Source: Spirochaetia bacterium
GTDB taxonomy: Bacteria; Spirochaetota; Spirochaetia; SZUA-6; Bin103
DNA: 64,000 bases
Assembly: GCA_965203905.1 (NCBI GenBank)
Contig: CBDBDQ010000005.1
Span: 6,336,001 to 6,400,000, forward strand
Direction of reading: 5' to 3'
This document shows, in pieces, positions 1 through 3,556 of the stretch. Each line of letters starts with the position of its first letter. Position 1 is the stretch's first letter. A program made the position numbers and the translations under genes. The notes below the pieces were generated by a model. The model saw only the letters and a list, made by a program, of their open reading frames with translations. It had not been told where the DNA came from and did not search any database.

Positions 1-45
1 AACGGGCATCGGTAGCAAGGACCGAGCGCGCTACCGATGCCCGTT
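1..45. repeat. Perfect 16-bp inverted repeat with 13-nt loop
   Basis: aacgggcatcggtagc (1-16) and its reverse complement gctaccgatgcccgtt (30-45); may extend past the window edge. Confidence 0.85.
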
Positions 46-63
46 ACGGGTACAGGTGGAACG

Positions 64-99
64 AAAAAAAGGGGCTCTACAGGTAGCTGCAGAGCCCTT
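64..99 (-). terminator. Intrinsic terminator
   Basis: Minus strand reads GGGCUCUGCAG-cuac-CUGUAGAGCCC then C and U7; 11-bp stem whose G-U pair works only on the minus strand. Confidence 0.85.
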
Positions 100-190
100 G
101 ATCGGCCCCCGGCCAGCTTGTGACGGCCGACCGAGGAACGCTATCCACCAAAAAGGGGATAGTCTTCCAAGCCCGACTTAACGGGATACA
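64..190 (-). ncRNA. Candidate structured small RNA downstream of the PemK-like toxin (possible RNA antitoxin)
   Basis: Bounded by the promoter at 197-226 and the terminator at 64-99; hairpins cccg/cggg, ctatcc/ggatag, tcggtcggcc/ggccg..gccga and the terminator stem. Confidence 0.5.
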
Positions 191-196
191 GTCGAA

Positions 197-226
197 ATTA
201 TGCCGGCTCTTTGCGGATTACGTCAA
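197..226 (-). promoter_or_regulatory. sigma70-like promoter in the toxin 3' end
   Basis: Minus strand TTGACG (226-221), N18, CATAAT (202-197), overlapping the toxin stop codon. Confidence 0.6.
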
Positions 227-560
227 GCCCCAGTGCCTTGATCACGCCGGCCCGGATGGCCTCAAGGACGTCGGGCGGTACCCGTGGCGTCCCGTACTTC
301 GGCTTACCGCCCTTCTTGACCCTTACCCGGTCAAGTCGGTCCACAGATACTGTGTACAGCATGTCGCACTTCGCCCAGGAACCTCCTCGGCGGCGAAGAG
401 TACGCGGCAAGGACTGGCGACCTATCCGACAATGAAAGGGCTGCACTGGTCGCGGAGCAGCAGAGCTCAGCGATACGACGGTGCACAGCCGAGCTCCTGA
501 CCTTCCGCTCGGGCGGTATGACCACAATGGGTCTCACCTTGACCATTTCTGGCGGATTCC
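198..560 (-). pseudogene. PemK/MazF-like (YifN-type) endoribonuclease toxin, frameshifted and 5'-truncated
   Basis: PPEMVKVRPIVVI in one frame continues as RLCTVVSLS...WAKCDMLYTVSVDRLDR...IRAGVIKALGL in another; frameshift near 495-515; usual N-terminal CDF segment absent. Confidence 0.75.
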
Positions 561-946
561 AGCTTAATCTGTGTCCGTTGTCCGAACTGCGTGTATCTCA
601 GCCTACGTGACGTTGCTCTCTGCCCGAGTCCACGCGAAAAAGGAACGGACGTTTGTGGAGTAGTTGATGCATTTCGTCCGTAACGAGGCAGCAGTGAACG
701 CCGAGAACACCCGCACGTGGCGCCTAACCGCTGACACCATGTCGTCAATCCGTGGCAGCCACGCCCTTCGCCGTATCGGTCGCGCCGGTTGACGGTGCGG
801 ACAAAGTGGGGATAGTCTCCTCGTGCGCTTCAAGCGCACTCTTGCTCGACTCCCAATCGGCGGGTGCACTTGCCCCCAACGTGTGACTTGGTTCCCAACA
901 CCAGCGTGCTTGCACGTCTTCGTCGAGTGGGTCGGCACATCACGAG

Positions 947-1618
947 ATGAGCATGGAGATGGAAGCTGACTTTCACGACGAGATGCTGAGCCTATATCGC
1001 CGTACGGGCGTGGCGACCGGGGTCTGGCACAACTACTTCCTCCGATCCGTGCACAGGGAAGGAGGACTTGTCTTTGCGAAGAAGCTTCTTGCTCCGACAA
1101 AGACGAGCACAGGTTTCGATTCGCTGGTGAAAGCACAAAGAGCGGACCTGTCCGTCGAGGCGCTCGTCGTCAAGCAGCGTTACGCCCATCTCTTCGGACC
1201 GGACGAACTTGAAGAAGCTCAACGCCGTTTGACTCAGGTTCCCGACTCCGGCTTCCCCAAGGAGTCGGATGGACCGGAGACGCTAGGTGAGATAACCGAC
1301 GGCGAAACATACCAAGAAAAGTCCGTCCAACATGTATTGGTAAACCGTCACGAACGCAATTCAAAGGCGAGAAAGAAGTGTATTGAGCACTTCGGGGCGC
1401 GTTGCAAGGTGTGCGATCTTGACTTCGAGCGGCGCTATGGCGAAGTCGGAAGAGGCTTCATTCACGTACATCATCTACGCCCTCTCGGGCGACTAAAGTC
1501 TTCGTATCGACTCGATCCACTCAAGGACCTGATTCCTGTATGTCCAAACTGTCACGCCATGCTACACCGTCGGAATCCGCCGTACGACGTTGAGCAGTTG
1601 CGCGGTCAATTGCGATAG
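947..1618 (+). CDS. HNH endonuclease, McrA-like C-terminal domain plus small helical N-terminal domain
   Basis: ERN..AR..CIEHFG..C.VC..DFE..YG..G.GFIHVHH..PL...PVCPNCHAMLH. Confidence 0.88.
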   Translation: MSMEMEADFHDEMLSLYRRTGVATGVWHNYFLRSVHREGGLVFAKKLLAPTKTSTGFDSLVKAQRADLSVEALVVKQRYAHLFGPDELEEAQRRLTQVPDSGFPKESDGPETLGEITDGETYQEKSVQHVLVNRHERNSKARKKCIEHFGARCKVCDLDFERRYGEVGRGFIHVHHLRPLGRLKSSYRLDPLKDLIPVCPNCHAMLHRRNPPYDVEQLRGQLR

Positions 1619-2137
1619 AGTCTTCTGCGGACTATCGCCTGGAAGAAACGCGGCGAAGGAGGTAGCATCCATGTTGAGAACGAGTAAGCTGATGGCACCT
1701 ATAAGTGCCGTCAGCGGTCGGACCAATGGCTGACCTTCTGACCGAACACTTGGACCCGCTTCTAACCCGAACACGTGCACTCCGCCATAGCCTCGAGCTT
1801 CGCCTGATTCTTGTGATCAACGTACCCGGCCTGACCCTACACCTATCCGCTCGTTCGGAACTGCGTACGTTCGGCGTGCCGGCCCTGTACGTGTCACAGT
1901 TCCATCTATGGGCGAAGCGTGGCACTAAAAAATCCAACCAAAACAGTAGCCCATAGACCAAGTGCAAACGACCAACCGATACGCCAACCCACCTATCGAT
2001 GCAGCAAAGGAACAAGACTAACGGACAAAGTAAAACCTGCTCCATGGCTCCGCCAAGCGCGCCACATGCACAAATCGTACAAACCGCCCTATCCGTGGCT
2101 ACGACAGGTTAATCGATGATCCTTTTACCATAGTGAT

Positions 2138-2968
2138 TCAGACTGGATGTTGTCGCGGTCTCTCCTCATAGCCGATATTCACAAAGTTAAAACACTTCCC
2201 CAGAATGTCGATCAATTCCTCGTCGTATACACGGCGCGAGTTACTATGAGCGATCTGCTGGCTTCTATTTAGGAAATACGCAACAAAGTCAGCCAGCTGA
2301 ATTAGACGACAGATCTTGGAGTCTTCAAAATGAACTCGGATAAGGTCGGACTCTTCCCATCGCAGGGGAACGAGACCTGTTCGGCCTGGTTTCTTCTTAC
2401 CGGCGTCGGAAAATATCTCCCATTTGGTGCTTGGAAATTCTTCCGTGATGTAATCTCTACATCTCCGTATACAGAGAAGAAATGCTGCATCCTTCGGTGA
2501 CTCCAAATCTATTCCGAATTTCTGACGAATGAATCCTACATTCTTCTCTGATCCCATATTAACTAACTGCTGATGACTCTCATTACCCTTCCATAGAGTC
2601 TGAACAATGATCGGAAATTTCATGATACGAAAGATCTCAGCAACACCGGCTATCACTCCCTTCAAGGCTCCTATAGGCACCTCAGCCCAGCAGTTCTGTC
2701 TCTGAAAGATTTCGTAGGCATGTAGTTCAGCAGCCCCAAACCGCGCCTTTACTTCGTCGTGTATGCCATCCATCTGTGAGATGGCGTACTGCGATAGTGA
2801 AGGGGGAACCAACACAGCAATCCATGTTTGTCTGTCCTGTGACCCATTCCGCGTTTCGATTTTCGAACCGCCATCATCCATCAGGACAAGTCCAGTTCCA
2901 TCCAGGCCAGAAGATCTCTGAAGATTTAGGAAATTGCTGGAAATCGTATTCACTTTACAGACCTCCAA
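2138..2968 (-). CDS. DUF3800-family protein (RNase H-like fold)
   Basis: N-terminal MDDGGS, ELHAYEIF, C-terminal DSK..RLIQLADFVAYFLNR; low GC; start uncertain. Confidence 0.7.
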   Translation of the reverse strand: MEVCKVNTISSNFLNLQRSSGLDGTGLVLMDDGGSKIETRNGSQDRQTWIAVLVPPSLSQYAISQMDGIHDEVKARFGAAELHAYEIFQRQNCWAEVPIGALKGVIAGVAEIFRIMKFPIIVQTLWKGNESHQQLVNMGSEKNVGFIRQKFGIDLESPKDAAFLLCIRRCRDYITEEFPSTKWEIFSDAGKKKPGRTGLVPLRWEESDLIRVHFEDSKICRLIQLADFVAYFLNRSQQIAHSNSRRVYDEELIDILGKCFNFVNIGYEERPRQHPV

Positions 2969-3556
2969 GTGAAAGCTATCTCAGTGCACTGTGAATTTGC
3001 ATACGAAGTGCGCAAGTTCATGGTGGCCAGTCAGTATCTCTCAACGAAATCGATTCATTTCCATTCCTCAAGCTGCTGATCATGTTTCAGTTGCGTCCTG
3101 TGAATGGTAAGATCAACGTCGACCACAATTCATCGAAGCCGACTCCCAACCACTCGAAATTGTCAATCCAGCCGCCGCCCGCTTCGAACAAATTGGTTTC
3201 CCGCGTCTGAAAGTCCAAGCCCTCGTCGGGGAAACAGAACATACCAAGCCCAATATACGCTGGATAGACTACGGCGTCAATGGCAATCGAGAGAGCATCC
3301 ACGCTTTCGTCGGATTGCAGTTGATCCTAACGTCCATCCGACATTCGATCTGGTTTCGGTTTGGGTTGGGAAAGTGGGTGACCGGAACCCTGCTTTAGGA
3401 CGTGCACCCCAGGTGGCTCGACGGTAGTAGCGGGTTCGTTTTGTGAGAGTAGTCGTATGTCCGCGCGCGCTCTTTAGTCGAATCTGGATTTGGTACGGCT
3501 CGCCCTGCCGGATCTACTAAGTGCGGTTCACGCAGCTTTCGCAGGTTGTGCACTTT

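Follow-up and report, generated by a model that had tools for sequence, protein, structure and literature searches.

The window analysed here is a stretch of 64,000 nucleotides from a Spirochaetia bacterium (contig CBDBDQ010000005.1, positions 6,336,001 to 6,400,000), whose minus strand carries, near its first positions, the remnant of a PemK/MazF-like toxin gene followed by the gene of a small structured RNA (sRNA) (Table 1). MazF/PemK toxins are textbook type II toxins, neutralised by protein antitoxins. A previous reading of this DNA from its letters alone, referred to below as the sequence-only reading, had proposed that the partner of this toxin could be the RNA encoded beside it, and the analysis presented here followed up that proposal by comparing the locus with its relatives in other genomes.

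A toxin pseudogene and a small RNA gene at one locus

The toxin pseudogene is split over two frames of the minus strand, 564-502 and 503-201, and ends with a TAA stop codon at 200-198. Its N-terminal part encodes SWNPPEMVKVRPIVVIPPERK, and its C-terminal part encodes RSGARLCTVVSLSS...SWAKCDMLYTVSVDRLDRVRVKKGGKPKYGTPRV...LGLDVIRKEPA, with the stretch SWAKCDMLYTVSVDRLDRV lying after RSGARLCTVVSLSS within this second frame. Compared with P0001, the closest full-length relative, the C-terminal part preserves 63 of 75 residues (84%) and the N-terminal part 15 of 21 (71%), and since the alignments to P0001 in the two frames abut at about 502-504, a frameshift must lie there. The relatives begin with MPxxFxPxPGxLLMCDFxxGFKxPEM, and no counterpart of their first ~20 codons was found upstream of position 565 in the window, revealing that the 5′ end of the pseudogene, start codon included, has been lost. 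With ~20 codons gone and a frameshift near 502, the window holds no intact toxin open reading frame (ORF), and the toxin of this module is dead. Moreover, the nearly invariant VPLS motif of the family reads VSLS in the pseudogene, neither of its two fragments produced a score in a Pfam scan, and a tblastn search found no second toxin copy in the genome to which the window belongs.

Table 1. Features of the toxin-RNA locus in the window, with their positions and the evidence for each
Feature	Position	Strand	Evidence or detail
PemK/MazF-like toxin pseudogene	198..565	minus	ORF and alignments to P0001
Frameshift site joining the two pseudogene frames	~500..505	minus	two-frame alignments to P0001 overlap at ~502-504
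Sigma-70-like RNA promoter	197..226	minus	TTGACG-N18-CATAAT, 10/12 consensus matches
Whole sRNA transcript (predicted), ~127-129 nt	64..192	minus	ends placed from promoter and terminator
Conserved RNA core	100..190	minus	covariance models: R1 70.9 bits, R2 58.5 bits
P1 hairpin CCCG/CGGG, loop UUAAGU	172..185	minus	fold and family models
Single-stranded joiner CUUGGAAGA(C)	163..171	minus	family form GGGCUUGnnAGAC
P2 hairpin CUAUCC.../...GGAUAG	141..162	minus	strongest-covarying helix of the family
P3 composite helix (P3a, P3b, P3c)	101..140	minus	fold and family models
P3 apical loop, 8 nt	118..125	minus	window CGUCACAA vs family GAUnACAA
Intrinsic terminator	64..97	minus	11-bp hairpin 97-72, T-run 71-64

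The promoter of the RNA shares its sequence with the final codons of the pseudogene, stop codon included, the –35 box (TTGACG, 226-221) and –10 box (CATAAT, 202-197) being separated by an 18-nt spacer, and two promoter-like sites were found in positions 1-1200 of the window vs 0.2 ± 0.5 in shuffled sequences. The sRNA would start about 5-7 nt past the –10 box and end with the T-run; among the public runs listed for this stretch, none is on record as RNA. When the segment 192-64 was folded as a single sequence, P1 (185-172), P2 (162-141), P3 (136-107) and the terminator hairpin were formed, with an energy of –60.2 kcal/mol (z = –4.33) that none of 200 shuffled sequences matched. The reverse strand of this segment folds comparably (z = –5.75), so that the z-score does not tell the strand of the RNA, which was assigned from the T-run and from the comparison with other loci. 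As for the terminator, one such site was found where 0.9 were expected, a number that alone does not rise above chance. No tandem repeats were present in positions 1-1000 of the window, and model searches retrieved a single copy of the RNA both from the window and from the whole genome.

These results confirm what the sequence-only reading had observed, namely a promoter within the last toxin codons, a stretch of ~125 nt with three hairpins and a terminator, an RNA present in single copy, and a broken PemK/MazF-like gene, the last of these being supported by the two-frame alignments to P0001 and by the assignment of the intact relatives to PF02452. The same reading had considered the RNA signals to be intact. 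In fact, the window RNA keeps its promoter, all of its helices and its terminator, but 3 of the 22 positions with at least 85% conservation are changed, two of them in the conserved loop (G130 and A131). Both of the first two positions of the P3 loop, G in 92% and A in 97% of the family, are altered in the window; the C, A, G, A and C positions of the joiner are 94-100% conserved in the family. Drift has begun in the conserved loop, and the altered positions fit a relaxed constraint after the loss of the toxin.

Two further observations concern the sequence of this locus. The –35 box of the RNA (221-226 in the window, and likewise in the loci L001, L007 and L010) coincides with codons of the C-terminal LGLD of the toxin, so that the conservation of LGLD may partly stem from the promoter. 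In addition, a 17-nt direct repeat, 88% identical, joins positions 149-165 to 802-818, where the AGACUAUCCCC segment of the RNA recurs upstream of the pseudogene, after a small hairpin. This copy was rejected as a second RNA, the covariance model giving it only 3.8 bits, and it could be either a chance repeat or a tiny relic of a second module.

Intact toxin relatives and conservation of the RNA beside them

The family to which the pseudogene belongs was assessed through its intact relatives. A word-indexed search with the C-terminal part of the pseudogene retrieved five of them, four of which (P0001, P0003, P0004 and P0005) match PF02452 (PemK_toxin) with 46-52 bits vs a cut-off of 23.1 (E 5e-12 to 9e-14). 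An exhaustive phmmer search with P0003 reached 778 representative clusters at E ≤ 1e-3, and the subfamily, taken as the clusters (50% identity) at E ≤ 1e-10 to P0003, numbers 406. These proteins are ~128-140 aa long and share the subfamily motifs PEMxKxRPVVV and WAKCDM; among 83 relatives, C15, E25, K28 and R30 are invariant, and P24, P51, S53, W82, K84 and D86 are conserved in at least 90%. The family profile aligns with E. coli MazF (5ck9; E 0.001), placing KxRP on HRP and PLST on PCTT, sites that we take to be the catalytic Arg29 and Thr52 of that enzyme. Similarly, an AlphaFold2 model of P0003, built from the 83-sequence alignment with a predicted local distance difference test (pLDDT) score of 93.8, found 5hjz as its top Foldseek match (E 6.5e-7) among 92 matches at E ≤ 0.001, the best being MazF-mt1 and the MazF proteins of S. 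aureus, B. subtilis and E. coli, with template modelling (TM) scores of 0.74-0.84 by target length. The protein is accordingly predicted to be a MazF-fold endoribonuclease of a distinct PemK/MazF subfamily. None of six toxin relatives matched the PADLOC defence-system models, and of four searched against NCBIfam only one matched MazF, with 17 bits vs a cut-off of 120.

A set of 106 loci was assembled from 26 loci of species genomes, belonging to Vicinamibacterales, Chromatiales, other Gammaproteobacteria, Alphaproteobacteria, Chlorobiaceae, Lysobacter and Sutterella, and from the best 80 of 373 metagenome relatives. A blastn comparison of the 300 nt past the stop codon paired the window with L001 (71.6% over 109 nt, E 1e-11) as well as with other loci, and an architecture shared downstream of the toxin genes was visible in a MAFFT alignment. 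A first covariance model, R1, was built from nine sequences and covered the core only, with the terminator excluded. Of 100 sources (the window and L001-L099), 87 gave a single R1 match at E ≤ 0.05, each beside the toxin gene, and 78 of the positive sources were outside its training set. The second model, R2, was rebuilt from 77 matches and produced 91 matches in 91 of 100 loci, together with further matches in L101-L106; since it was built from 77 of these very matches, its success in those loci is partly by construction.

The linkage is close to complete on the side of the toxin. An intact toxin ORF is present in 96 of the 106 loci, 94 of which extend for at least 250 nt downstream, and a model match was found in 89 of these 94. 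The remaining five carry a divergent version of the RNA that shows the same architecture by eye; they comprise four Chlorobiaceae loci and L022, with scores such as 21.2 bits for L022 and 10.9 bits for L015 (E 0.58, filters off), and the divergent variant was also seen behind the toxin gene of a Polaromonas plasmid. Counting these five, no intact toxin gene devoid of the RNA was found among the 94 loci with at least 250 nt downstream. As for other loci that gave no match, L011 and L032 are cut by a contig end, L026 is a gene remnant, and L038 has a broken toxin ORF of 80 aa and stops short of the site at which its relatives L031 and L034 carry the RNA. Conversely, the RNA stands beside broken toxin genes in the window and in L010, L024, L025, L073, L089, L113 and L114. 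Such an asymmetry, with RNAs beside dead toxins and no intact toxin without an RNA, would be expected of a toxin that depends on the RNA.

The structure of the RNA is constrained across these loci. In an alignment of 75 distinct sequences, 92.8% of the cells were paired, vs 27-50% when the 3′ partners were slid by 1-3 columns, all 23 core pairs showed compensatory changes, and the covariation score was 0.580 vs 0.057-0.121 for the slid versions, with none of 500 shuffles reaching the observed values; this alignment was fitted to the model, which biases its pairing and covariation figures upward. RNAalifold on an unfitted MAFFT alignment of nine sequences recovered the same P1, P2, P3a-c and terminator, with compensatory changes in 9 of 36 pairs. 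A scan of all column pairs disclosed no covarying helix beyond the 23 modelled pairs, and a pseudoknot or alternative pairing of the joiner GGCUU with the P3c segment AAGCC was discarded, as it showed no covariation in that scan. The conserved nucleotides left unpaired are those of the joiner GGGCUUGnnAGAC, the GC after P2 and the loop GCGAUnACAAGC.

The RNA also bears its own transcription signals. At a fixed distance from the RNA, 49 of 62 non-redundant loci have a sigma-70-like promoter that agrees with the consensus at 9 or more of 12 positions, vs 2 of 61 for a control stretch lying another 100 nt upstream and 1.4% of shuffles, and a T-run followed within 80 nt of the RNA core in 49 of 60 loci. 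Conservation of promoter and structure beside homologues with the WAKCDM motif was a test set by the sequence-only reading, and these figures support it, together with the view of that reading that the RNA has a promoter of its own. All 91 matched loci have the RNA downstream of the toxin gene, on the same strand in 81 of them and convergent in 10. L102 is the sole upstream case, its RNA and terminator preceding the toxin gene, and the E. coli plasmid p5217 gave a weak, convergent match of 21.4 bits whose motifs were recognised by eye. The placements on the opposite strand and upstream indicate that the RNA is a separate gene, not a 3′ untranslated region (3′UTR) or a cis-acting element. A quick tree of the toxins suggested at least three changes of RNA orientation and placed the variant RNA in one toxin clade, with weak support, 13 of 67 inner branches being starred. 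Altogether, the RNA is shown to be a real, structure-constrained and independent gene.

Searches that started from the RNA led back to the toxin in most cases. In the seed genomes, R2 gave one match, at the toxin locus, in four of five, and none in the fifth. Seeds included, matches were found in 2 of 151 genomes of the phylum of the window, in 3 of 151 of the order of G151, in 3 of 151 of the class of G152 and in 2 of 151 of the class of G153. Six matches were new (L108, L113, L114, L122, L123 and L124). In L123 and L124 an intact toxin gene of the same strand closely precedes the RNA, whereas L113 retains only toxin residues 2-60 and L114 only residues 82-120; in L108 the match lies at a contig edge and the neighbouring DNA is missing. 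On mobile elements, tblastn with P0003 found relatives in 85 plasmid records (55 from Escherichia, 8 from Klebsiella and others), named in RefSeq ‘type II toxin-antitoxin system PemK/MazF family toxin’, and in 11 Vibrio phage-like elements. Small E. coli and Citrobacter plasmids are among the carriers of the module. On the Citrobacter plasmid pLHC5-1-6.9k (L116), the RNA is flanked by the toxin gene and a DUF3800 gene (43.4 bits), and the Neisseria gonorrhoeae chromosome has it immediately after the toxin ORF, within a region that resembles a prophage (53.8 bits, E 9e-10). The RNA was found in Proteobacteria, Acidobacteriota and Chlorobiota, and is shown to accompany the toxin gene from phylum to phylum, whichever way the two are oriented.

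Candidate roles of the RNA

In the mechanism proposed here, positions 64-565 of the window would represent the decayed copy of a mobile two-gene module. Its first gene would encode a MazF-fold endoribonuclease of ~130-140 aa with the motifs PEMxKxRPVVV and WAKCDM, and its second a structured RNA of ~90 nt followed by a terminator and driven by its own constitutive-looking sigma-70 promoter. The RNA would act in trans as the antitoxin, binding the RNase directly in the manner of type III antitoxins and not pairing with the toxin mRNA, and its conserved unpaired nucleotides (the loop GCGAUnACAAGC and the joiner GGGCUUGnnAGAC) would most likely be offered to the RNA-binding groove of the MazF-like dimer. 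Neutralisation of the toxin by the RNA is suggested by their linkage, by the intact toxins that never occur without it and by the RNAs that survive beside dead toxins. The proposal that this sRNA is a trans-acting, type III-like antitoxin of a MazF-fold RNase, single-copy and non-repeat, stands about as good a chance of being right as of being wrong.

Protein partners were sought as ORFs of at least 45 aa flanking the toxin gene in the 106 loci. No real cluster of shared flanking ORFs occurred in more than 14 loci, those reflecting local synteny, and the largest cluster, of 35 loci, consisted of antisense frames overlapping the toxin gene itself. Pfam searches on 140 of 266 chosen neighbour ORFs returned a heterogeneous collection (housekeeping, phage, restriction, integrase and others) with no pattern. 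In 75 of 101 loci, an ORF of the same strand had its end close to the start of the toxin gene, these ORFs being mutually unrelated. The statement of the sequence-only reading that no protein antitoxin lies beside the toxin therefore stands in the sense that none is consistent across loci, and has to be qualified for some sub-clades, in which an upstream ORF is coupled to the toxin gene.

Several points weigh against the antitoxin proposal, and those coupled ORFs are among them. In L070, L075, L083, L086, L088 and L092-L094, a ribbon-helix-helix (RHH)-like ORF of ~190 aa with DDEIPF as its last residues abuts the toxin start; in L101 this place is taken by an Abi_C protein whose last residues are DDIPF, and helix-turn-helix (HTH) proteins precede the toxin gene in L014, L060 and L077. 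Such translationally coupled ORFs may be a third component of the module, or the protein antitoxin or regulator, in these sub-clades; the loci with RHH-like, Abi_C or HTH ORFs still carry the RNA. The partner survey itself was confined to the ORF length and the Pfam subset given above. Most of the loci were gathered through the protein and then served to train R2, so that the independent support comes from R1 and from the searches starting from the RNA, one of which ended at L122, a partial RNA-like match with no toxin detectable nearby. Moreover, RNAs kept beside dead toxin genes also fit an RNA with a function of its own, the canonical features of type III systems are missing (there are no repeats, and the toxin is not ToxN, CptN or TenpN), and for every member of the family both neutralisation and binding are purely what we infer. 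As observations on these loci, the abutting upstream ORFs, most of them with an RHH-like N-terminus and that of L101 with an Abi_C domain, have a common acidic C-terminal tail, D(D/E)IPF, and the match in L122 adjoins a divergent gene pair (L122:1728-2620), the first product of which, judged by eye, presumably resembles antitoxins of the SocA/Panacea type.

A small RNA with its own promoter beside a toxin gene would also be expected of a type I-like antitoxin, which would pair with the toxin mRNA and block its translation or trigger its decay, and where RNA and toxin gene converge, their transcripts could overlap at the 3′ ends. However, antisense pairing of the RNA with the toxin mRNA proved no better than that of non-cognate pairs or reversed controls. 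The predicted binding of the RNA to the start of the mRNA was –45.2 kcal/mol for cognate vs –44.5 ± 12.1 kcal/mol for non-cognate pairs (mean rank 15.9 of 32), and the longest complementarities to the mRNA, compared with reversed controls, were 8.11 vs 8.39 for the joiner, 7.83 vs 7.88 for the loop and 6.62 vs 6.87 for the 5′ end. The best matches of the loop to the mRNA cluster at the codons for VVVIS, with which the loop does not covary by eye, and in most loci the RNA runs in the same direction as the gene without overlapping its coding part. To our knowledge, type I toxins are small membrane peptides and not RNases. This explanation is considered most improbable, and, with no antisense signal detected, direct action on the protein is the most economical reading. 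The RNA could also have a cellular or mobile-element function of its own and hitch-hike beside the toxin, or be no more than the 3′UTR and terminator of the toxin transcript, as its retention beside toxin remnants and the often mobile flanks (integrases, phage genes and, in 10 of 116 loci, IS1595-like elements) could suggest. Yet the matches of the searches starting from the RNA all lie at a toxin gene or its remnant, except the partial L122 and the contig-edge L108, while all other flanking content differs between loci, and a 3′UTR is excluded by the opposite-strand and upstream placements with a conserved promoter; taken together, these alternatives are very improbable.

A more serious competitor holds that the RNA is an obligate partner of the RNase and not a simple inhibitor, whether as a preferred substrate or processing target, a decoy imitating the cellular target, a sensor that releases the RNase when it is lost or cleaved on phage infection, or the specificity subunit of a ribonucleoprotein (RNP). 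The linkage, the covariation and the independent promoter speak for it in the same way as for the antitoxin, and it would also accommodate the highly conserved unpaired nucleotides, the RNA copies that outlast dead toxin genes and the coupled upstream proteins, which in some clades could be the real antitoxin. A narrower form of it, rather improbable in our judgement, is an obligate RNP of the sRNA and the MazF-like RNase in which the loop GAUnACAA and the joiner GGGCUUGnnAGAC mimic a cellular or phage target or set the specificity; there, the part played by the RNA would be that of a sensor, switch or targeting subunit. If true, it would be a new RNA-controlled RNase module, mobile across at least three phyla, enterobacterial plasmids and a gonococcal prophage region. 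Against an obligate partner of any kind, most of the 106 loci are without a conserved protein that could restrain an active RNase of the MazF type, and MazF enzymes require, as far as we know, no cofactor or guide. An RNA inhibitor explains the tolerated intact toxin genes more simply. In favour of an obligate partner, other terminator-ended RNAs tied to one protein family are described in the covered part of Weinberg et al. 2017 (PMC5737381), with no known function. On balance, an obligate partner is a possible explanation that lies on the unlikely side.

Related systems and genomic surroundings

The antitoxin proposal finds its closest counterpart in the type III systems (toxIN, cptIN and tenpIN), which likewise pair an endoribonuclease toxin with a small structured noncoding RNA beside it, with no protein antitoxin, in modules residing on plasmids, prophages and islands; a terminator-ended RNA would likely be in excess over the toxin in both cases, and the order of RNA, terminator and toxin gene in L102 is that of a type III operon. 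The differences are also clear. The RNA described here is present in single copy, has its own promoter, lies usually downstream of the toxin gene and sometimes on the other strand, and folds into ~90 nt with three helices, whereas type III antitoxins derive from a tandem array of 34-50-nt pseudoknot repeats that is cut by the toxin. Moreover, the toxin belongs to PF02452 and to the MazF fold, all the Foldseek matches listed being of the MazF type, and not to ToxN, CptN or TenpN. According to the part of PMC13682666 (October 2026) covered here, there are three type III families, and all systems but the non-canonical avcID use tandem repeats. In avcID, as presented in the parts covered of PMC10511110 and PMC13682666, a single non-repeat sRNA, AvcI, is taken to inhibit the toxin AvcD post-translationally, and this precedent counts in favour of a non-repeat, type III-like antitoxin, although AvcD is a deoxycytidylate deaminase and not an RNase, its RNA is unrelated and the gene order differs.

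The type II systems MazEF, PemIK and Kis-Kid share with the present module the toxin fold and the aligned active-site motifs. In contrast, most of the loci studied here are without an upstream antitoxin gene of the MazE/PemI type, and the subfamily is distinguished by an insertion and by its own motifs PEMxKxRP and WAKCDM. The sequence-only reading had also mentioned a computationally predicted pemK-associated RNA motif, which is a different RNA. The pemK motif is linked to PemK genes by its name and reportedly, as a member of the Weinberg et al. 2017 set, occurs as 5′ leaders in Firmicutes, while the RNA described here is a separate gene found mostly downstream.

No Rfam 15 family, the pemK motif and ToxI included, matched at or near its gathering score when positions 1-3000 of the window (E ≤ 10) and 13 homologous loci (E ≤ 1) were searched. 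The sub-threshold candidates were rejected: BjrC68 (16.6 bits, gathering score 39) and mir-1271 (18.1 bits), the latter on the terminator hairpin, both at chance level in the window; istR (27.4 bits, gathering score 45) and RsmY in L013, a locus of Nitratireductor aestuarii, on P3 and the terminator; and RsmY also in L019, on the terminator, the two RsmY matches reaching 21.9 and 20.8 bits (gathering score 57).

The RNA also behaves like the DUF3800-I, drum and skipping-rope RNAs, which, in the covered part of PMC5737381, are terminator-ended, associated with a single protein family before or after its genes and whatever their orientation, and of unknown function. The same part of that paper connects DUF3800 genes with a number of unexplained RNA motifs, and such a gene is close to the present RNA in three unrelated loci (window 2138-2968, L116:2655-3503 and L104:480-1340). 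However, those RNAs showed no sequence or structure match in the Rfam searches, and the constant neighbour here is the MazF-like gene. DUF3800 was rejected as a constant neighbour, as it occurs within ~2 kb in three loci only, with no proper count made, and tblastn among the three DUF3800 proteins gave no cross-matches. On the Citrobacter plasmid L116, the DUF3800 gene and the RNA face each other directly, in convergent orientation.

The literature searched yielded no account of an RNA that partners a MazF/PemK toxin, and the part of Remmele et al. 2014 (PMC4176332) covered makes no mention of this locus. If the antitoxin proposal is true, the RNA would be a family that Rfam 15 lacks, and the module would represent a new family of RNA antitoxins beyond toxIN, cptIN and tenpIN and would explain partnerless genes annotated as ‘type II toxin’; it may also bear on plasmid maintenance or phage defence, and would provide a functional idea for the unexplained terminator-ended RNAs tied to a single protein family in the covered part of Weinberg et al. 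2017.

With regard to the surroundings of the module, IS1595-like transposase genes (DDE_Tnp_IS1595 with a zinc ribbon) adjoin it in L016, L021, L049, L057, L062, L076, L079, L082, L087 and L104, and these elements may be a vehicle for it. In the window, positions 1-3500 form an islet of low GC content, 0.47-0.60 vs ~0.70 around it, which contains the toxin remnant, the RNA, an HNH endonuclease gene (947-1618, plus strand) and the DUF3800 gene (minus strand). A hipB-hipA-like gene pair lies just to the left of the window (L118:10257-11911, plus strand), and the islet resembles a small toxin-antitoxin or defence island that was acquired beside hipBA. Finally, positions 1-45 of the window, ~86 nt past the end of this gene pair, hold a perfect inverted repeat with 16-nt arms, a 13-nt spacer and no flanking T-run, which could be a terminator-like hairpin or one resembling repetitive extragenic palindromic (REP) elements.

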